This document shows, in pieces, positions 4,050-15,711 of a stretch of DNA of 64,000 nt (position 1 is its first letter; every line of letters begins with the position of its first letter). The DNA lies in NCBI GenBank assembly GCA_937121005.1, contig CAKZKB010000529.1:48784-112783 (forward strand). The letters run 5' to 3'. This DNA comes from an uncultured cyanobacterium. GTDB lineage: Bacteria; Cyanobacteriota; Cyanobacteriia; Cyanobacteriales; Geitlerinemataceae. The notes under the pieces were generated by a model. The model ran no database searches, was not told the origin of the DNA, and worked only from the letters and a program-made list of their open reading frames with translations. The position numbers and the translations under genes are program-made.

Positions 4050-7000
4050 ATGGGGCAAACTTTAGCGATGCGAGCCATGAAGGGCGATCGAGGGGCGATC
4101 GGATGGATAGGAGCGGCGGTGCTGGTCTGGAGCGCACCGTTTCCGGTCGTGGCGCAGGTGATTCCCGATACGACGTTGCCTAGCGATTCGGTTGTGAATG
4201 TGGATGGTGCGACCTTCGTGATTGATGGGGGAACGGCAGCCAACGGCAATTTATTTCACAGTTTCGAGGAGTTTTCCGTGCCGACGGGAGGCGCAGCGTT
4301 GTTCAATAATGCAGTGGGAATTGAGAATATTTTCAGTCGCGTTACGGGGAGTTCGATTTCAGAGATCGATGGTGTTTTAGGAGCCAATGGAACGGCGAAT
4401 CTGTTTTTCTTGAACCCGAACGGGATTGTATTCGGGCCGAATGCACGGTTGGAGTTAGGCGGTTCGTTTGTGGCTTCGACGGCCGATAGCGTGGTATTTG
4501 ACAATGGGTTTGAGTTTAGTGCTAGCAATCCCCAGGTTGAGTCGTTATTGGCTGTGGATATGCCCATGGGGTTGCAATTTCGAGACAATCCGGGGGATAT
4601 CGTCGTTCGGGGTGAAGGAACGAACTTTCCCCCAACTGTTGAAGGAGAAACCCCAGAACAGACAATCGATCTCATAATCCAGTCTCAAACTGAATTTCTC
4701 AATAACTCAGTGGGATTGCGCGTTGAAACTGGAGAAACCCTGGCCTTAGTGGGTGGCCATATTGATTTAGATGGGGGAATTCTCAAAACGCCATCGGGAC
4801 GAATTGAATTGGGAAGTGTGGGGTCAGGAGAGGAAGTTGCCATTGAGTCCCTGAACCGAGGCTGGCAACTCGACTACACGGGAGTAGCCAGTTTTCGAGA
4901 TCTATCCTTAAGCCAGGAAGCTGGTGTGACGGCTAGTGGTGAAGGGGGAGGGGAAATTCGGATCCGAGGTGGGAGCGTTACCCTCAGTGGAAACACTTTA
5001 ATTGTTGCCGATACCCTAGGAACTGGAGACGGAAGCGGTATCGATCTAACGGTGGGACAGTTGAGTGTTCGTGAAGGGTCAAGGATTACGGCGGGCACAG
5101 TGCGAGAGGGGAATGCCGGCGATGTCAGCATCCTCGCCAGTACAGTAGAAGTCCTCGATGGAGCTCAGTTGTCTACCTTTACCTTGGGCAGGGGGGATGG
5201 AGGAACGGTGACGGTAGAAGCCACTGATACTATCCTCTTCTCTGGGACGAACCTTGATGGGTTTAGTAGTAGTAGTGGTGCGTTCAGTCGCGTGGAACCA
5301 GGGGGGGAAGGGAATGCGGGTGGTCTCAGCATCGTCGCCAATTCGGTAGAAGTCCTCAATGGAGCTCAGTTGTCTTCGAGTACCAATGGCATGGGGGATG
5401 GGGGAACGGTGAGGGTAGAAGCTACTGACACCATCCTCTTCTCAGGTACAAACCCTGATGGGTTTCCTAGTGGTGCGTTCAGCCGAGTGAACTCAGGGGG
5501 GGGAAGGGAATGCGGGTGGTCTCAGCATCGTTGCTAGTACAGTAGAAGTGCGCGATGGAGCATTTTTGTCTTCGAGTACCAATGGCATGGGTGATGCAGG
5601 GATGGTGACGATAGAAGCCACTGAGAACATCCTTTTCTCGGGCACAAACCCTAATGGGTTTGCTAGTGGTGCGGTCAGCGACGTAAACCCAGGAGGGAAA
5701 GGGAATGCGGGTGGTCTCAGCATCGTTGCTAGTACAGTAGAAGTGCGCGATGGAGCATTTTTGTCTTCGAGTACCAATGGCATGGGTGATGCAGGGATGG
5801 TGACGATAGAAGCCACTGACACCATCCTTTTCTCAGGCACAAACCCTGATGGGTTTGGTAGTAGTGTCCTCAGTAACGTGAACTCAGAAGGGGAAGGGAA
5901 TGCGGGCGATATCAGCATCGTTGCCAGTACAATAGAAGTGCGCGATGGAGCTCAGTTATCTTCAAGTACTCGTGGTATGGGGAATGGGGGAGCGGTGAGG
6001 GTAGAAGCCACCGATACTATCCTCTTTTCAGGCACGGACGCTGATGGGTTTGGTAGTGGTGCGTTCAGCCAACTGAACTCAGGAGGGGAAGGGAATGCGG
6101 GCGATGTCAGCATCGTTGCTAGTACAGTAGAAGTGCGCGATGGAGCTCAGTTGTCTTCAAGTACTCGTGGTATGGGGAATGGGGGAGCGGTGAGGGTAGA
6201 AGCCACCGATACTATCCTCTTCTCGGGTAGTGGTGCGGTCAGCGACGTGAACCCAGGAGGGAAAGGGAATGCGGGCGATGTCAGCATCGTTGCTAGTACA
6301 GTAGAAGTGCGCGATGGGGCTGTGTTGTCTTCGAGAACCTTCGGCATGGGGAATGGAGGGATGGTGAGGGTAGAAGCCAGCGATACCATCCTCTTCTCGG
6401 GCACGGACGCTGATGGGTCGCCTAGTGGTGCGTTCAGTCGCGTGGAACCAGGAGGGGAAGGGAATGCGGGCGATGTCAGTCTTGTTGCCAGTACAGTAGA
6501 AGTTCGTGATGGAGCAGCGTTGTCTTCAGAAAATGTCGCTTCCTTCAATGCACCCGATCGCGAGTTTGGTAATAACTTCCGTGCTGGTAATCTGATCGTG
6601 CAAGCTGAATCGATTCAACTGACTGACGAAGCTGCCATCATTTCCAATACCCGAGGGCAAGGTGGCAACATCCAACTTAATTCGGGGACAATTATTTTAC
6701 GTCGCAACAGCAACGTCCGTACTAATGCAACGGGAACTTTCCCCGGTGGGAACATTACTATGGATACCGGTACGCTTGCTGCCCTGGAAAACAGCGACAT
6801 TACCGCCAATGCTACCAATGCAGCCGGGGGCAATGTCATTATCAATACGCAAGGAATTTTCGGCACAGAATTTCGCGAATTCGAGACCCCACAAAGTGAT
6901 ATTACTGCGACTGGAGCGACCCGAGAATTGCAAGGAACAGTTGAAATTAACACCCCCGATGTTGATAGTACCCAAGGCATTATCGAACTTCCCCAAACCG

Positions 7001-7368
7001 TCACCGATCCCAGAGAACTCCTCTCGCAAAATCCCTGCGTACAGGGTGCAGATAGCGAGTTTTCAGATATTGGAACGGGAGGATTTCCGGCGGGGCCGGA
7101 CGAACCGCCGACTCAGGCGGGGGTAGAAGCCAGTTGGATCGAATTCGACACGGACGATCGCCCCGAGCCCACGACAACCCTATCCTCCACAGAGTTTCTC
7201 GATCGACCCCAACCCATTGTCCCGGCGCGGGGGTGGAGACTCGACGACACCGGACGAGTCACTTTTACCGCCGACGATCGCGAAACGTCGGTAGAATTGC
7301 CCGTTTCCTCCACCATTTTCCATCGCCCCGATACCGCCTGTTCCCCGAGGTTCCGCTCCGGGCCATAA
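4050..7368 (+). pseudogene. TpsA1: filamentous-haemagglutinin-type two-partner-secretion exoprotein, split into ORFs 4050..5537 and 5548..7368 by a +1 frameshift in a G8 run
   Basis: The N-terminal TPS domain is present (NLFHSFEEFSV, ANLFFLNPNGIVFGPNARL). About 65-aa beta-helix repeats follow. Removing one G from 5496-5503 restores ...NSGGEGNAGGLSIVASTVEVRDGAFLSS... across the break. Confidence 0.85.
5100..6500 (+). repeat. Tandem ~195-bp (65-aa) coding repeats inside tpsA1
   Basis: The unit ...GNAGxxSIVASTVEVRDGAxLSSSTxGMGxGGxVxVEATDTILFSGTxxDGF... recurs about 7 times. Units starting at 5518 and 5713 share a perfect stretch of about 104 nt. Confidence 0.85.
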
Positions 7369-7369
7369 T
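7337..7369 (+). repeat. 33-bp direct repeat, copy A (3' end of tpsA1)
   Basis: CCTGTTCCCCGAGGTTCCGCTCCGGGCCATAAT matches 8309-8341 at 31 of 33 positions. Confidence 0.9.
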
Positions 7370-7391
7370 TGAGTTCGCGATCGCGCCTCAT

Positions 7392-7808
7392 CTACACTGC
7401 AACCAACGACTCCGAATTTTCCCAAGCGATCGTCCCTTCCAGTCCGCCCGATTCCGCAAAGGTTTTAGCCGCCAACAATGCCGTCTGCAAGCCCACACAG
7501 ATTTTAGCCGGAAACGTCCCCAATTGCCCGCCAACAACCCGTTTTTCCACGCCCGAAGAGCGATCGCCATCGACTGAATTATAAAACTCAACGTTATCAA
7601 AAGTGGCCGTGACAATATATTTACCGTCTTCACCGCCGCCAATGGACATATAAGTATCTTCGTCAACTCCCAACGTGACTAAAGTTCGGGTTTTGCCATC
7701 GAGTTGGCCAATTGCTGCTTCAATTTGTTGCCAATTTGGGTTCTCAATGAGATCTCCTTCATCTTTGTTGCCAACCCAGTTTTCAATAGATAAATCGACG
7801 ACAAACAT
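7392..7808 (-). CDS. Putative immunity protein (Imm1-like) of the adjacent deaminase module
   Basis: This 138-aa acidic cytoplasmic ORF starts where the deaminase frame stops (they share position 7808). NPNWQQIEAAIGQLDG...MSIGGGEDGKY resembles the W...GG signature of Imm1-type immunity proteins. Confidence 0.55.
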   Translation of the reverse strand: MFVVDLSIENWVGNKDEGDLIENPNWQQIEAAIGQLDGKTRTLVTLGVDEDTYMSIGGGEDGKYIVTATFDNVEFYNSVDGDRSSGVEKRVVGGQLGTFPAKICVGLQTALLAAKTFAESGGLEGTIAWENSESLVAV

Positions 7809-8230
7809 TACTTTCTCCTTGATTTGGGTGGTTTAACGGCGATCGCCTGGCTGCCACTCGGTGCGACAATTTCTAACTCTTCTATTCCCAATTGCCAAGC
7901 CATAGAATTAACGCCTCCGCGAACGCCACAAGCCGCACAAAGGTCGCGATCGACGATTAAACGAGCTCTGCTAGCGCTAATTCCTGCATCGGCCGCTTGC
8001 TGGAACGCATCCGCTTCAGCATGGGTTTTGGTAATCGGATTCACCTTAAATTTTATATCACGAAAATCAGGATTGCTGCCAGAATTGATACCGAAAAAAC
8101 TAAAACCGCCGATTTCCAGTTTGGCGATCGTGGCTCTATCCGCTTCGCTTCCAGCAGGAGGTAGATTGAGTTGCTGTCTGTACCGAGCGAGTTCGTCAAA
8201 ATGCTGTTCGTTTGTCCTCTCCTCCTCAGT
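7808..8230 (-). pseudogene. Start-less nucleic-acid deaminase toxin domain (the ORF track calls only 7808..8044 from a GTG)
   Basis: The frame is open from 8230: ...ATIAKLEIGGFSFFGINSG...VNPITKTHAEADAFQQA...DRDLCAACG. The zinc-binding H-A-E and C-x-x-C motifs of the deaminase fold are present. There is no ATG, GTG or TTG upstream of the GTG, which lies 7 codons before HAE. Confidence 0.6.
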
Positions 8231-8291
8231 CTATCGCTCTATTGTAGTGCGATCGCGTTACAATCCGATCGCGCCTCGCCGCACAAGAACC

Positions 8292-10172
8292 ATGCAAATG
8301 CCCCTTGACCTGTTCCCCGAGGTTCCGCTCCGATCCATAATAGGGTGTTTCCGTACTCTGGCAAAAACCGTGCATCCCACTCTGGCACTTCTCAGTTTAC
8401 CCGCAAGCCTTCTCCTGGTTTTCTCGAACCAGGCGATCGCCCAACTTCCCAACCCCAATACGCCGCCACCGCCCGATCGCCTTCCCACCGATTTTCCCGA
8501 TCGCTTCGACCCTGCTTTCGATACTGACATTTTCCCCGAACCTCCGGTTTCACCCGATTCCGAAGACTCCGATCGTCTAGAAATCGAGATCGAGGGGTTT
8601 GAATTTATCGGCAGTACCGTCTTCGATGAAGAAGATTTTACCGCCCTCAACGAACAATTGCAAGGGAGATTGCTCGGCGTTCCCATCACCTTCGATCGAC
8701 TCCTAGAAATTGAAGCGATCGTCGGCCAACTCTACCAAGCCGGTTGTGAAATACCCAACCCCTCCGAAACCGAGGATACGGAAAGCGACGGCGACTCTCA
8801 GTTGCGATCGCTGCTGCAACAACTCAATCCCGATGGCTGTTACATCAATTCGGGAGCCGTTCTCGTCGCCGGAGACGAATTCGATCTCGATACGGGGATT
8901 GTTCCTGTGCGAATTATTGAAGGTCGCGTTGAGGAAGGCGATCTCGATATCAAGATTGAAGGTCTCAGAGAGAATTATATTCGCAGCCGCCTGCAACGAG
9001 CCTTACAACCCCTCGATCGCAATGCTTTACTCGAAGCCTTACAATTGCTACAACTCGATCCGCGCATCGAAAGCATTTCCGCCCGACTTTCTGAAAGCGG
9101 ACGCTCCGATCGCGCCGCTCTCGATATTATCGTAGAAGTCGCCGATACTTTCAATACTCGCCTGTTTGCCGACAACGGACGCGCACCCACCGTCGGCACG
9201 TTTCGCCGAGGTGTCGAACTGAGCGACAACAACCTTTTTAATATCGGCGATCGTCTCAGTTTATCTTACACCAATACGGCGGGAAGTCACGCCGCCGATG
9301 GCAGTTATACCTTCCCCCTCAACTCCCGTAACGGAACCCTGAGACTGGCAGCAGGACTCACCGATACCGCAGTCATTGAAGAACCTTTCGATCGCGTGGA
9401 TATTGAAGGAAATTCCCGTTATTTCGAGTTGGGTGTGCGTCAACCTATCGTTCTCACCCCAAGCACAGAATTCGCCTTGGGGCTGACCGCTTCCCGCCAA
9501 GAAAGCGAAAGCACTCTGTTAGGAGATCCCTTTCCTTTATCCGCCGGAGCCAGCGACGATGGCGAAACTCGCATTTCCGCACTTCGCTTTTTTCAAGACT
9601 TTACTCGCCGCACTCGCAGCGATGTTTTTGCCTTGCGTTCTCAGTTGAGTTTGGGGTTAGGAGCCTTCGATGCTACAGTGAATAACGAGCGTCCAGATAG
9701 CGAGTTTTTCGCTTGGCGAGGACAAGCTCAGTACGTGCGTCGGTTGTCGGGAAGTACGCTACTTTTCTTGCGTTCCGACCTGCAATTTGCCAACGATGCC
9801 CTCATGCCATTAGAGCAGTTTGGCATTGGTGGCTTTCGCAGCGTTCGCGGCTACCGTCAAGATTCGTTGTTGACCGATAATGGCATTTTTACATCCGCCG
9901 AAGTGCAAATTCCGTTGTTAGAAATTGCTGACCTAGATGGACAGTTACAACTTGCCCCGTTTGTTGATTTTGGTGTAGGTTGGAACAATGCCGAGAGTGA
10001 GGATCCCGACCCCAATACTTTAATTGGTTTGGGGATTGGATTGCAGTGGCAAATGGGCGATCGCTTTTCGCTGCGCTTGGATTGGGGGATTCCTTTGACC
10101 GATGTAGAGTCCAACGATGAAACTCTACAAGAAAATGGGTTTTACTTCTCTGTAGACTACAACCCATTTTAG
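8292..10172 (+). CDS. TpsB: ShlB/FhaC/HecB-type outer-membrane transporter (POTRA plus beta-barrel)
   Basis: The ATG at 8292 (MQMPLD...) is followed by a signal peptide ending AIAQ. A POTRA-like region (IEIEGFEFIGSTVFDEEDF) follows. The C-terminal barrel ends in an aromatic residue (...FYFSVDYNPF). Confidence 0.85.
   Translation: MQMPLDLFPEVPLRSIIGCFRTLAKTVHPTLALLSLPASLLLVFSNQAIAQLPNPNTPPPPDRLPTDFPDRFDPAFDTDIFPEPPVSPDSEDSDRLEIEIEGFEFIGSTVFDEEDFTALNEQLQGRLLGVPITFDRLLEIEAIVGQLYQAGCEIPNPSETEDTESDGDSQLRSLLQQLNPDGCYINSGAVLVAGDEFDLDTGIVPVRIIEGRVEEGDLDIKIEGLRENYIRSRLQRALQPLDRNALLEALQLLQLDPRIESISARLSESGRSDRAALDIIVEVADTFNTRLFADNGRAPTVGTFRRGVELSDNNLFNIGDRLSLSYTNTAGSHAADGSYTFPLNSRNGTLRLAAGLTDTAVIEEPFDRVDIEGNSRYFELGVRQPIVLTPSTEFALGLTASRQESESTLLGDPFPLSAGASDDGETRISALRFFQDFTRRTRSDVFALRSQLSLGLGAFDATVNNERPDSEFFAWRGQAQYVRRLSGSTLLFLRSDLQFANDALMPLEQFGIGGFRSVRGYRQDSLLTDNGIFTSAEVQIPLLEIADLDGQLQLAPFVDFGVGWNNAESEDPDPNTLIGLGIGLQWQMGDRFSLRLDWGIPLTDVESNDETLQENGFYFSVDYNPF
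8309..8341 (+). repeat. 33-bp direct repeat, copy B (5' end of tpsB)
   Basis: CCTGTTCCCCGAGGTTCCGCTCCGATCCATAAT. See copy A at 7337-7369. Confidence 0.9.
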
Positions 10173-12249: not shown

Positions 12250-15200
12250 ATGCCATCACAAGTCGCTACTATTGCCATTCCCCTCATGGGTGGAGTGCTG
12301 TTGGGAGTTCTACCCGCATCAGCACAACTGGTTCCCGACGCAACATTGGGAAACGAAAGCTCGATCGTGGTTCCGGGGGGCCAAATTGAGGGACTGGAGA
12401 GCGATCGCGTTGATGGGGGAGCGTTACGCGGCCCCAACTTGTTCCACAGTTTTCAAGAGTTTAATATCGATGAGGGACGGGGAGCCTATTTTGCGAACCC
12501 GGTTGGAGTTGAAAATATTCTCACTCGCGTCACCGGGAACAATCCCTCGAATATCCTGGGGACGTTAGGCGTTCTCGGGGATGCGGATTTGTTTTTTATC
12601 AATCCCAATGGCATTGTTTTCGGCCCCAATGCTCGCCTAGATTTGGGTGGATCGTTTGTGGGATCGACGGCGGATGGGTTGTTGTTTGACAGTGGATTTG
12701 AGTTTAGTGCCAGTAACCCGCAAGCACCGCCGTTGTTGGTGACGGATTTGCCGATGGGGTTGCAGTTTCGCGACAATCCGGGAAGTATTTTGAATTCTTC
12801 CCAAACGACAAATTCTGATGGATTGATTGTTGGTTTACAAGTCCAATCTGGAAATACATTAGGCTTGTTAGGGGGAGATATTGTTTTAGACTCGGGTAAT
12901 TTAACTGCATTTGACGGTCATATTGAGTTAGCTAGTATTGTTGGAGAAAATTCCGTTAATATAACTTTACTTGCTAATCCATTTACAATTGGTTTTGATT
13001 ATACGAATATTGACGAGTTTGGAGATATTCAATTATCTTTAACATCTGTTGTAGATGTAAGTGGCTTTGGTAGGGGGAATATTTTTTTATGGGGAAACAA
13101 CATCTTTTTATTAGATGGCTCGATATTGTTGTCAAATAATGAGGGTGGTTTTGAACAGGGACTAATTTATGTTAGTTCTTCCGGTCGATTAGAACTCTCT
13201 GGTATAAGATTGTCAAATGACGATCTGGCAATTGGCAGTTCTATCTCAAGCAGTTCGCAGCAAGAAGGGAGAGGCGCAAATATTTTTGTTGAAGCATCTG
13301 ATTTAAGGTTATTAGATGGAGGTCAAATAGCCGCCGTCACTGGAGGGTTAGGTGATGCTGGTAATATAACGATTAAATCAGAAAATATTGAAATAATCGG
13401 CGCTGATCCTAGCCGTATATTCACCCCAAGTGTTATTTCTTCATCTGTTCTACCTGGTGGGATTGGTGATGCAGGATCGGTACAAATTGAAACTGAACGT
13501 TTAATTATTTCTAGTGGCGGAGATGTACGGGCTTCAACCTTTGGCTTTGGTAATTCTGGAGATGTTGCTGTCTTTGCTTCTGATATCCAGTTGAGTGGTA
13601 TTTCTTCTTCTATTTCGACAAGTGCAAATAGTATTTCTGGTTTTGCAGGTAATTTGATGATTCAAGCCGATCGGGTGTTTGTTAGTGAAGGCGCAGAAAT
13701 ATCTACTCGATCTCAAGGTCAGGGAGATGCAGGGAGCATTTTTATACGGGCCAATCACGTAAATCTTACTGGTAGAAATGGTTTAGAAAATCCGAGTGCG
13801 ATTTCTAGCCGGGTTACACCAGGAGCGACAGGTAATGGTGGAAATATTACAATTGAAGCATCATTGCTCAGTATTCGTAATGGTGCTTCAATAGATTCAA
13901 GTATGTTTGGATTTGGCAATGCTGGTGATATCAATATTGAGTCTTCTGATGTAGTAGTTGATGGTTTTTTGGATCGTCCTAGTGGTATTAGCACAGCTAT
14001 TTTTGAGGGGATGGGAAAAGGAGGAGAATTGCACATAAATACAGAACGGTTGCAAATTTCAAATGGAGCCCAAGTCGGCTCAGGTACTTTTGGTATCGGA
14101 GATTCTGGAAATGTGATTATTGATGCTAGCAGCTTTGTGGAAATTATAGGAATTGGATTGATTGCAAGTTCTCTTGAGGCTGGTGCTGTAGGTACTGCTG
14201 GTTCTATTATAATTGAAACACCGAGATTAAGAATTGCAGATGGGGGCGAAATCTCATCTGCAACTTCAGGGTTTGGTGATGCAGGATCTATAAACATATT
14301 GGCGGATAATGTCACCGTTACGGGTATAGCTTTATCACCACAAAGAAATGCGAGTAATATCAGTGTAGGTACACAAACACAAGCATTGGGGAATGGAGGT
14401 CAAATTTCGATCGATGCTGAGGTTCTGAGTGTGTCTGATGGTGGGAGAATAGCCACCGATGCTCGTGGCATTGGTAATGCAGGAGATATTACAATTACGG
14501 CTTCTGATATAACGGTAGAAGGACTAAACTCTGAAACTGGCTTTCCTAGTTTATTCGGACTCAATATTAGTCCAAGTGCTAGAGGTCGAGCCGGAGATTT
14601 GATCGTGCAAACTGAACGTATAAGGGTTTTAAGTGGAGGACAGATAGCAGCAGCCACAGAAGGGAATGGCCCTTCTGGAAGCATTAGTATATTGGCTGAC
14701 GATTTAGTTCAAGTTGATGGTATCATTGATGAACTACAAATTCCTAGTACAATATCTGTATCCAGCCTCAGCGATTTCGTTGCAGGTAATTTAATGATTG
14801 ATACTAATAGACTAATTGTTAGTGATGGTGCTGAAATTTCTGCAAGGGGAGATTTTTTTGGGAGAGCCGGAAATCTGTCTATTCAGGCTAATTTTATACG
14901 ACTACAAGATGGAGCCAATATTGGTGCTGCTGCTTTGCGCTTTGAAGAAATTCCATTACTTGCCAATGTAACTGAACAGGGAAATTTAAGTATTGTTTCT
15001 GATGCTTTAGTTATGGAACAGGGAAGCCGAATAACAACTGACACTAGAAATGTGGAAAATGGAGGAAATATAACTATTGAGTCTGGAGTGATTGCTGGCA
15101 GAGGAAACAGCGATATTACAACTAATGCTACATCTGGTCGTGCTGGAAGGATAGAAATTACAAGTCAAGGGCTTTTAGGTATTGCTTTACGTTCAAGGGA

Positions 15201-15711
15201 AAACTTACAGATGCTATTGGGTACTAACGATCTGACGATTGAGAGTCCTATTGCTCTGCTAAGTAGTGATATTACTGCAATATCAGAACAAGGAGAACAA
15301 CAGGATGGGCAGACTATCTTCAATACCCCCGATGTAGACAGCACCCAAGGCATTCTCGAACTCCCCGAAGCTGTAGTCGATCCCAACGAACTGATTTCCC
15401 AAAACCCTTGTACTCAAGGAACCCGCAGCGAGTTTACCGATATCGGGCGTGGGGGAAGGAGTTCCAGCCCCGACGAAGTGCCCGATCGCGAAACGATTCC
15501 CGCCCCTTGGATCGATCCAGTAACACAGAGCGATCGCCCTACCGAGACAACCGACACCCTTGCCGATCGCCCCTCCCCAGAACCGATCGTCCCGGCGCGG
15601 GGATGGACAATAACCGAAAACGGTCGCGTCGAATTTACCGCCGACGGGCCTGCTACAATCCCTCTTAGCAGCCAACCGCGTTTGTCCCACCCTACCTGCA
15701 CCTCGCCCTAA
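12250..15711 (+). CDS. TpsA2: filamentous-haemagglutinin-type TPS exoprotein (1153 aa)
   Basis: The signal peptide ends ASAQ. TPS-domain motifs are NLFHSFQEFNI and DLFFINPNGIVFGPNARL. Long G/N/S-rich beta-helix repeats follow. It carries the conserved C-terminal module FNTPDVDSTQGILELPE...NPC...IVPARGW. Confidence 0.9.
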   Translation: MPSQVATIAIPLMGGVLLGVLPASAQLVPDATLGNESSIVVPGGQIEGLESDRVDGGALRGPNLFHSFQEFNIDEGRGAYFANPVGVENILTRVTGNNPSNILGTLGVLGDADLFFINPNGIVFGPNARLDLGGSFVGSTADGLLFDSGFEFSASNPQAPPLLVTDLPMGLQFRDNPGSILNSSQTTNSDGLIVGLQVQSGNTLGLLGGDIVLDSGNLTAFDGHIELASIVGENSVNITLLANPFTIGFDYTNIDEFGDIQLSLTSVVDVSGFGRGNIFLWGNNIFLLDGSILLSNNEGGFEQGLIYVSSSGRLELSGIRLSNDDLAIGSSISSSSQQEGRGANIFVEASDLRLLDGGQIAAVTGGLGDAGNITIKSENIEIIGADPSRIFTPSVISSSVLPGGIGDAGSVQIETERLIISSGGDVRASTFGFGNSGDVAVFASDIQLSGISSSISTSANSISGFAGNLMIQADRVFVSEGAEISTRSQGQGDAGSIFIRANHVNLTGRNGLENPSAISSRVTPGATGNGGNITIEASLLSIRNGASIDSSMFGFGNAGDINIESSDVVVDGFLDRPSGISTAIFEGMGKGGELHINTERLQISNGAQVGSGTFGIGDSGNVIIDASSFVEIIGIGLIASSLEAGAVGTAGSIIIETPRLRIADGGEISSATSGFGDAGSINILADNVTVTGIALSPQRNASNISVGTQTQALGNGGQISIDAEVLSVSDGGRIATDARGIGNAGDITITASDITVEGLNSETGFPSLFGLNISPSARGRAGDLIVQTERIRVLSGGQIAAATEGNGPSGSISILADDLVQVDGIIDELQIPSTISVSSLSDFVAGNLMIDTNRLIVSDGAEISARGDFFGRAGNLSIQANFIRLQDGANIGAAALRFEEIPLLANVTEQGNLSIVSDALVMEQGSRITTDTRNVENGGNITIESGVIAGRGNSDITTNATSGRAGRIEITSQGLLGIALRSRENLQMLLGTNDLTIESPIALLSSDITAISEQGEQQDGQTIFNTPDVDSTQGILELPEAVVDPNELISQNPCTQGTRSEFTDIGRGGRSSSPDEVPDRETIPAPWIDPVTQSDRPTETTDTLADRPSPEPIVPARGWTITENGRVEFTADGPATIPLSSQPRLSHPTCTSP

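Follow-up and report, generated by a model that had tools for sequence, protein, structure and literature searches.

A deaminase-Imm1 gene pair between tpsA1 and tpsB of an uncultured cyanobacterium: a probable mobile module whose toxin is most likely disabled

The stretch of 64,000 nucleotides (nt) analysed here, hereafter the window, derives from an uncultured Geitlerinemataceae cyanobacterium (contig CAKZKB010000529.1 of assembly GCA_937121005.1) and carries tpsA1, a gene for a TPS-domain exoprotein (4050–7368, plus strand; PF05860 215.7 bits), followed by tpsB (8370–10172, plus strand; ShlB/FhaC family, PF03865 103.6 bits). Between them lies an insert (7375–8308) whose two genes occupy the minus strand, opposite to both neighbours: a deaminase toxin frame of 140 codons (7808–8230) without an in-frame initiator, and behind it an intact 138-aa immunity gene of the Imm1 family (7392–7808). 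The insert is flanked by two direct repeats, DR1 (7337–7374) and DR2 (8309–8346). A preliminary description of the window had recognized this inverted pair, its repeats and its missing start, and had regarded it as an orphan toxin-immunity module of the tpsA system. The parts listed there have been recovered, while the evidence presented below leads away from that assignment, since the pair is probably a self-contained mobile module inserted between tpsA1 and tpsB, with a toxin since disabled by the loss of one nucleotide and an Imm1 gene that is still intact.

The toxin frame follows an in-frame TAG (8233–8231), is open from 8230 and ends at TAA (7810–7808). Profile searches place both open reading frames (ORFs) of the cassette above the Pfam cut-offs (27 bits for PF14437 and 22.4 bits for PF14430), and NCBIfam matched neither. 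Residues 12–123 of the toxin align with positions 2–120 of the 142-position MafB19-deam profile (PF14437, 48.5 bits), in agreement with the deaminase family proposed from the HAE and CAAC motifs, both of which are kept (KVNPITKTHAEADAF and RLIVDRDLCAACG in translation). The MafB19-like clade is defined by HxE in helix 2, basic-xxCxxC in helix 3, an asparagine before HxE and a valine ending strand 3 (Table 1 of PMC3239186), and in an alignment of 19 sequences all of these columns are invariant. An AlphaFold2 model of the domain, built with 19 homologues (pLDDT 84.5, pTM 0.82), has cytidine deaminases and DddA (6u08) as its best Foldseek matches, at probability 1.0 but with template-modelling (TM) scores of only 0.42–0.49 (about 0.46–0.49 for DddA), and a sequence search of the PDB gave no deaminase match for the toxin and only noise for Imm1. 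Judged by its sequence, the frame encodes a complete MafB19-like deaminase domain, and the toxin of the module is probably a nucleic-acid deaminase with DNA cytosine as the predicted substrate. MafB19-clade enzymes have been reported to deaminate DNA cytosines (bioRxiv 10.1101/2023.06.29.547047), although the MafB19 profile of that study differs from PF14437. The toxin was also considered as an extension of a minus-strand ORF in the same frame (8689–8258), a candidate rejected on account of its antisense position to tpsB, its junk composition and two intervening stops.

Imm1 matches PF14430 at 37.6 bits over profile positions 6–124 of 125, as its earlier designation as an Imm1-like protein implied, and the TGG codon of its C-terminal tryptophan (W128, in ..TIAWENSE..) is kept in relatives. 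The tight coupling of the two genes is evident from the Imm1 ATG, which shares one base with the toxin stop (TAATG) and is preceded by an AAGGAG ribosome-binding site. This order of deaminase and then Imm1, joined by the conserved AAGGAG..TAATG junction, recurs in nearly all of 80 genome loci, and about 60 related loci hold an Imm1 of equal length with the AAGGAGnnnnTAATG junction. A profile search detected no DNA-binding domain in Imm1.

The cassette, both repeats and the lesion described below are not assembly artefacts. Three independently assembled metagenome contigs (L001–L003; one ENA contig of 27 kb and two from JGI) show the cassette flanked by both repeats in the same arrangement, free of gaps, and over up to 11.9 kb their sole nucleotide difference from the window is a single-nucleotide polymorphism at 7846, within the disabled toxin, where codon 129 in the toxin tail reads GCG (Ala) in the window and ACG (Thr, the family consensus) in the contigs (A129T). 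No foreign composition was apparent, the cassette having the same GC content as the window (0.49) and four sites of the highly iterated palindrome HIP1 (GCGATCGC). Rfam gave no match over 6800–8900, no intrinsic terminators were found, and the PADLOC defence models did not match.

The position of the pair beside tpsA1 and tpsB is not shared by its relatives. A homologue search over 5.8 billion proteins returned 255 deaminase homologues carrying PF14437; those at 65–80% identity belong to filamentous cyanobacteria (Kamptonema, Microcoleus, Anabaena, Nostoc, Calothrix and others) and are mostly stand-alone proteins of 127–139 aa. A locus scan of one genome per species yielded 80 loci, 75 of them cyanobacterial, the best relative being 80% identical, and in none of about 80 related loci was tpsA or tpsB present within 5 kb. 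In Kamptonema and Floridaenema the deaminase-Imm1 pair stands among housekeeping and toxin-antitoxin (TA) genes (HicAB, DUF4258 and others at locus L006), and the large ORFs just upstream of the module in relatives encode PsaB, pyruvate phosphate dikinase, CobN, molybdopterin oxidoreductase and subtilase. Thus, the association of the module with tpsA and tpsB is incidental. Two copies, in a Leptolyngbyaceae metagenome-assembled genome (L027) and in Nostoc sp. FACHB-110 (L046), lie about 100–350 nt 3' of the photosystem I genes psaA-psaB (about 4650–5000), and show that the cassette lands freely beside core genes.

A few cyanobacterial copies are fused to an uncharacterized N-terminal region of ~350 aa (L024, L026, L033) or of ~110–130 aa (the Nostoc group L049, L064 and L072). 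Pfam assigned no family to either the ~350-aa extension of the L024 type or the ~110-aa Nostoc-type extension, the former (L024, 3893–5411) containing an internal duplication in which AWKGYLEQGRGA.. occurs twice. Relatives that form the C-terminal domain of toxins of 500–1800 aa are exclusively non-cyanobacterial and about 50% identical (~1780 aa at L074 and L078, ~490 aa at L075 and L077). The 64-kb window contains no related full-length toxin, no second toxin or immunity copy, and none of the N-terminal domains of the fused relatives.

The absence of a start codon has its counterpart in the family. In a nucleotide alignment of the 5' region of 30 loci a conserved block, AAAGGAGAGGAAAAACG(G/A)ACAG(T/C)ATTTTTGAT, ends in the F-D codons of a conserved FDELAEYR helix; an A/T-rich, -10-like box stands ~30 nt further 5', and conservation stops beyond about -60. 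The toxin body is intact at 57 cyanobacterial loci. Of these, 27 have ATG, GTG or TTG within 10 codons of this F, five have a canonical start only far upstream, and 25 lack an in-frame ATG, GTG or TTG anywhere from the upstream in-frame stop to F. Each of these 25 carries ACG at codon -4 counted from F, ATT or ATC at codon -1, or both. At the -4 position the 57 relatives have ACG in 25 cases, ATA in 11, and ATG and TTG in three each, and ACG accounts for 25 of the 27 threonine codons at -4, compared with 22 of 417 (5%) elsewhere in the same ORFs. The purine block precedes the -4 codon by 4–7 nt, and in several relatives it is overlapped by an in-frame stop, so that it is non-coding in those genomes. 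The block is therefore a predicted Shine-Dalgarno (SD) sequence, which would drive weak initiation at a near-cognate codon with the strong start of Imm1 coupled behind it. An SD followed by a near-cognate start also explains the inconsistency of public annotations of these toxins, which include an ATT-initiated "MFDDL" protein (Floridaenema), a 127-aa "MAEYRQ" product begun at an internal TTG, and artificial N-terminal extensions.

Two variants of this arrangement were observed. The SD-ACG block is kept inside the long ORFs of both fused types, and in the Microcoleus/Tychonema copies L035 and L058 (and L048) the ATA at -4 is followed directly by TAA, forming a one-codon mini-ORF with the toxin start, a GTG, two codons on; this may represent a start-stop or re-initiation arrangement.

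In the window the SD-like purine block GAGGAGGAGAGG (8216–8227) stands 4 nt 5' of an ACG (8209–8211) that is the likely ancestral near-cognate start, and ~30 nt 5' of the ACG lies TACAAT (8241–8246), which aligns with boxes of the TATAAT/TAAAAT type in relatives and is a candidate -10 element of the module's own promoter. Where relatives read ..AACAGCATTTTTGAT or ..AGCATCTTTGAC (ATT TTT or ATC TTT), the window alone reads ..AACAGCATTTTGAC, with a run of four T (T4) at 8198–8201 (AAAA on the plus strand); this T4 is found without length variation in the window and in the three metagenome contigs. The frame of the SD (8227–8216) and the ACG (8211–8209) consequently stops after 52 junk codons, and adding back one T produces a 134-codon ORF starting TNSIFDELARYR (TNSIFDEL...), as in Hormoscilla (KTNSIFDEL). 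No canonical or near-cognate in-frame start precedes the GTG at codon 63 of the window's deaminase frame. This GTG is its only ATG, GTG or TTG, in keeping with the initial report of a frame without a usable start, and initiation there would delete helix 1 and strands 1–2 of the fold predicted by AlphaFold. The start-less state thus appears to combine a family habit of non-canonical starts with a loss of one T specific to the window. Since this loss separates the reading frame of the SD block and the ACG/ATT codons from that of the deaminase, production of the toxin has most likely ceased, and its gene would be a recent pseudogene beside an intact Imm1. On the minus strand, a promoter-like site (8364–8337; TTGCCA, 16 nt, TATTAT; 10 of 12 matches) extends from the tpsB leader into DR2 and is directed towards the cassette, and its match to the consensus suggests that the module may by chance have come under the control of a flanking promoter when it inserted.

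In this module family the toxin often decays while the immunity gene persists: it is degraded at 18 of 75 loci, and at 12 of these 18 the adjacent Imm1 is still present. The intact Imm1 of the window could still give protection from related toxins. In intact modules, the combination of a weak near-cognate toxin start with a strong AAGGAG-ATG immunity start leads us to expect that the immunity protein would be produced in larger amounts than the toxin, in the manner of a type II TA or addiction module.

How the module came to its present site is best read from the repeats. DR1 and DR2 are 38 nt long and 89% identical, and their 33-nt core, identical at 31 positions, reproduces the repeat as originally reported. 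At up to three mismatches the repeat occurs as two copies in 64 kb, with none expected in 100 shuffles. The possibility that the 33-mer is a dispersed repeat was rejected, as no further copies exist in the window or in JGI metagenomes, where contigs carry the 23-mer common to DR1 and DR2 at this same locus alone. DR1 comprises the last 29 nt and the stop of tpsA1 (TAA, 7366–7368) with ~6 nt beyond, and is the authentic 3' end of that gene, as had been proposed. The companion proposal, that DR2 encodes the N-terminus of TpsB, fails once the tpsB start is revised. The longest tpsB ORF begins at ATG 8292, which is used by some gene callers, but this ATG lies within inserted DNA and DR2 falls inside that ORF. 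The closest TpsB (P0122, 71% identity, Geitlerinema sp. FC II) starts at a GTG (VHRFLTVLGSS...ATA/Q, the slash marking the end of the signal peptide) equivalent to GTG 8370 of the window (VHPTLALLSL...AIA/Q), so that 8370 rather than 8292 is most likely the real start of tpsB. It follows that DR2 almost certainly lies between the genes, where this further copy of the tpsA1 3' end adjoins the original tpsB leader within the tpsA-tpsB spacer.

The Geitlerinema sp. FC II locus (L087) also supplies the comparison of orthologous junctions. It has the order tpsA-tpsB-CHAT without the cassette, and its tpsA terminus (..HRCSPN, then the stop) and spacer align with the single-copy site reconstructed for the window (..CSPRFRSGP, the stop, 29 nt, then GTG) once a miniature inverted-repeat transposable element (MITE) is discounted. 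This MITE of ~150 nt (about 9700–9860 of L087) lies in the tpsA 3' end, has inverted termini GGGTGCATCTCA..TGAGATGCACCC and an 8–9-bp target duplication (TGTTGACTG), and alters the annotated C-terminus of that TpsA. By this comparison the 33–38-nt repeat reads as the footprint of an insertion at the tpsA-tpsB junction. Of the two origins initially suggested for the repeats, insertion is supported and cassette exchange is not. No convincing microhomology was seen at the two insertion junctions when these were read by eye. Just inside the two ends of the insert is an exact 12-nt direct repeat of HIP1-like sequence, CGATCGCGCCTC (7378–7389 and 8266–8277). With HIP1 as frequent as it is here (71 sites in 64 kb), this repeat could be a coincidence, or it could be the relic of an earlier flank.

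Comparable repeats flank the module elsewhere. When the 500 nt to either side of the cassette were searched at 70 loci, with 216 equally spaced positions in the same loci as controls, long flanking direct repeats were found at nine of the 70 cassette loci and at one control (Fisher p = 2e-5, or p = 0.003 counting five independent lineages). They occur in Anabaena (121 nt at L010 and 34 nt at L013, with the same sequence in both), in Hormoscilla (104 nt at L014, 66 nt or more at L059 and 34 nt at L015), at L021 and L083 (about 155 nt with indels and about 98 nt, respectively, partly sharing sequence), at L086 (51 nt) and in the window (33–38 nt), the duplication length thus ranging across loci from 33 to 121+ nt. 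The 121-nt repeat of Anabaena sp. WFMT consists of the last 115 nt of a conserved 94-aa gene, its stop and 6 nt, with the second copy directly after the Imm1 stop, and two other Nostocales genomes keep the 94-aa gene and its DUF3318 neighbour without the cassette. The architecture of a duplicated gene 3' end that extends slightly beyond the stop has therefore arisen at least twice, in either orientation. Taken together, the flanking repeats suggest that the module is mobile by an uncharacterized route. HIP1 is found within 80 nt 3' of Imm1 at 18 of 66 loci against 3.6 expected, the loci not being independent, and has been linked to recombination and transformation.

The events at the window's locus probably ran as follows. 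The module would have arrived by horizontal or intragenomic transfer, entering the ~29 nt that separate tpsA1 from tpsB with its genes facing the other way. Comparison with an empty site shows that the insertion copied 33–38 bp of its target (the tpsA1 3' end, the stop and a few bases), leaving tpsA1 intact. The toxin would normally begin at a weak near-cognate codon (ACG, sometimes ATT, ATA, GTG or TTG), and after insertion one T would have been lost from the 5' T-run, moving the start signals out of the deaminase frame. More tentatively, each insertion might consist of two independent joints a few tens of bases apart, for which widely staggered breaks, joining to two chromosome copies in polyploid cells and template switching are candidate sources; only insertions whose duplication preserved the neighbouring gene would survive.

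Several points weigh against this account of insertion, decay and weak initiation. Neither a transposase nor an integrase is encoded by the cassette, whose ends lack conservation from one genome to another; the hallmarks of a transposon or MITE are absent, conservation between loci spanning from ~60 nt upstream of the coding region to near the Imm1 stop. The target duplication is far longer and more variable than those of classical transposons, and some of the flanking repeats elsewhere hold MITE-like or HIP1-rich sequence, only part of them having been verified as target-derived. The sole empty tpsA-tpsB site comes from a fairly distant relative and bears a MITE of its own. Initiation at ACG is deduced from conservation and spacing, and the purine block, which the fused relatives translate, may partly reflect coding or an operator. 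Finally, the 1-nt deletion is the sole defect of the toxin ORF, and slippage could permit low-level expression.

An extension of the mobile-module reading, which we consider tentative and on present evidence rather unlikely, would make the pair an undescribed minimal selfish element: a recombinase-less unit of 1 kb that spreads with a 30–120-bp target duplication, typically of gene 3' ends, possibly helped by HIP1 sites or polyploidy, its lethal DNA-deaminase toxin throttled by ACG/AUU starts.

It is improbable, in turn, that the toxin of the window is still expressed, either by a ribosomal shift on the T-run from the out-of-frame SD-ACG/ATT or by transcriptional or replication slippage between T4 and T5, as a live low-level or phase-variable system. 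Such a system would account for a lesion placed exactly in a homopolymer beside the start of an otherwise intact ORF with all catalytic and invariant residues, in a family apparently selected for very weak initiation, and the neighbouring tpsA1 is likewise broken at a homopolymer. A run of four T, however, is short for efficient slippage, forms no canonical X XXY YYZ slippery heptamer and has the same length in all four independent assemblies; moreover, the ACG frame meets its stop after 52 codons, and the outright decay of 18 of 75 related toxins makes inactivation a common fate. The interruption of tpsA1 itself is a frameshift at a run of eight G (G8, around 5494–5501) that splits the gene into two ORFs (4050–5537 and 5548–7368). 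One G fewer would restore the repeat unit ..NSGGEGNAGGLSIVAS, contig L001 ends short of the run, and the interruption could reflect a pseudogene, a phase-variable tract or a homopolymer error.

Integrative elements restore their target genes by carrying a copy of the gene 3' end. The repeats could accordingly be the attL and attR of a site-specific integration, with the cassette as an integrase-less satellite mobilized in trans, resembling a cis-mobilizable element (CIME) or tycheposon and carrying the 3' end of its target. Indeed, the repeats of both the window and Anabaena contain the 3' end and stop of a resident gene, and the HIP1 excess 3' of Imm1 is in keeping with such a route. This explanation is nonetheless doubtful, given that repeat sequence and length differ wholly between lineages, that neither a conserved core nor element ends were found, and that no recombinase gene adjoins the module in the loci inspected; the HIP1 statistic, for its part, is inflated by related genomes and intergenic composition.

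Far less credible is the assignment from which the analysis set out, in which the pair is an orphan or silent C-terminal toxin and immunity cassette of the tpsA/tpsB system, start-less so that it can recombine onto the tpsA 3' end, with the 33-bp repeat as the site of exchange. It is well established that start-less toxin cassettes stand alone beside the primary genes of polymorphic toxins (Iyer et al. 2011, PMC3239186), the cassette does abut the tpsA1 3' end with a repeat that includes the tpsA1 terminus, and in more distant relatives the domain forms the C-terminus of a large toxin. But the cassette lies on the opposite strand, its 5' end is without tpsA homology (blastn and tblastn of the cassette against tpsA1 and tpsA2 found no similarity apart from the 33-nt repeat), and direct repeats would give deletion, not inversion onto tpsA. 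Nor do the TpsA proteins look like carriers of exchangeable toxins: the C-terminal 606 aa of TpsA1 have no toxin Pfam match, and the C-terminus common to TpsA1, TpsA2 and the Geitlerinema TpsA is conserved and non-toxin. The module owns a conserved ribosome-binding and start block, its start-less state here stems from a 1-nt deletion, and 75 cyanobacterial loci hold it away from tpsA/tpsB, beside housekeeping genes. As for the secretion genes themselves, tpsA2, a second TPS-domain gene (1153 aa, 12250–15711), is followed in the window by a CHAT-domain protein, and tpsA/tpsB are paired with CHAT proteins in Geitlerinema sp. FC II too (12659–15535 of L087), an arrangement suggesting that this secretion system has a task unrelated to CdiA-type toxins. 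A sequencing or assembly artefact may be dismissed as the source of the repeat or of the missing start. Although the lesion is a difference in homopolymer length, short repeats can come from mis-assembly and the JGI assembly is fragmented around the junction, the cassette and its two repeats are spanned by the ENA contig and by two JGI contigs, free of gaps and with a single-nucleotide difference.

For the window, the outcome is mainly corrective and fairly ordinary: the cassette stands outside the tpsA/tpsB system, tpsB most likely starts at 8370 and not at 8292, and the toxin is most likely dead while Imm1 survives. The patterns of start codons and target duplications across the family are the interesting residue. 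A large clade of deaminase toxins, relatives of enzymes of interest for base editing and methylome sequencing, is present in at least 75 cyanobacterial species in the form of autonomous two-gene modules; their predicted SD-ACG starts, which gene callers mis-annotate, may be a natural throttle on a lethal protein, and long target duplications with verified empty sites point to an uncharacterized insertion route in polyploid, HIP1-rich cyanobacterial genomes. MafB19-clade deaminase toxins, Imm1 immunity and stand-alone cassettes are already known (PMC3239186), and a full-text literature search for MafB19 with cyanobacteria or immunity returned general classification only, with no description of the dispersed TA-like organization, the SD-ACG start or the long target duplications.

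Among known systems, the orphan cassettes of polymorphic toxins (CdiA-CT/CdiI, Neisseria mafB-CT/mafI and the deaminase cassettes of Iyer et al. 2011) come from the same MafB19-like clade and Imm1 family, and share with the module a toxin directly followed by its immunity gene, the frequent lack of a canonical toxin start, and a domain that is C-terminal in large secreted toxins of other phyla. The cyanobacterial modules differ in that they neither cluster with a primary toxin gene nor have recombination homology to one; each brings its own block for ribosome binding and initiation, together with a promoter-like box, and occurs as a single copy beside housekeeping genes, the window copy being inverted relative to the nearby secretion genes. 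The DddA/DddI and SsdA/SsdI pairs, delivered by the type VI secretion system (T6SS), resemble the module in combining a small toxin of predicted cytidine-deaminase fold and HxE and CxxC zinc ligands with a dedicated immunity partner, yet they belong to another deaminase clade and immunity family, and the module has no T6SS, Rhs or PAAR delivery domain or neighbourhood. With type II TA systems it has in common a two-gene operon of ~1 kb whose stop and start codons overlap, translation signals that are weak for the toxin and strong for the antidote, a 130-aa toxin without secretion domain, a patchy and horizontally spread distribution, often among TA genes, and frequent toxin decay. By contrast with them, the module places its toxin first, its antidote is a polymorphic-toxin immunity protein without a recognizable DNA-binding domain, and PADLOC does not match it. 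In its manner of residence, finally, the module recalls MITEs and integrase-less satellites (CIMEs and tycheposon cargo), which likewise are short recombinase-less segments with target-derived direct repeats and empty sites in relatives. It departs from these by its lack of terminal inverted repeats or conserved ends, by variable duplications of 33–121+ nt as against 2–15 nt, and by targets that are the 3' ends of unrelated protein genes rather than a tRNA or a fixed att site.

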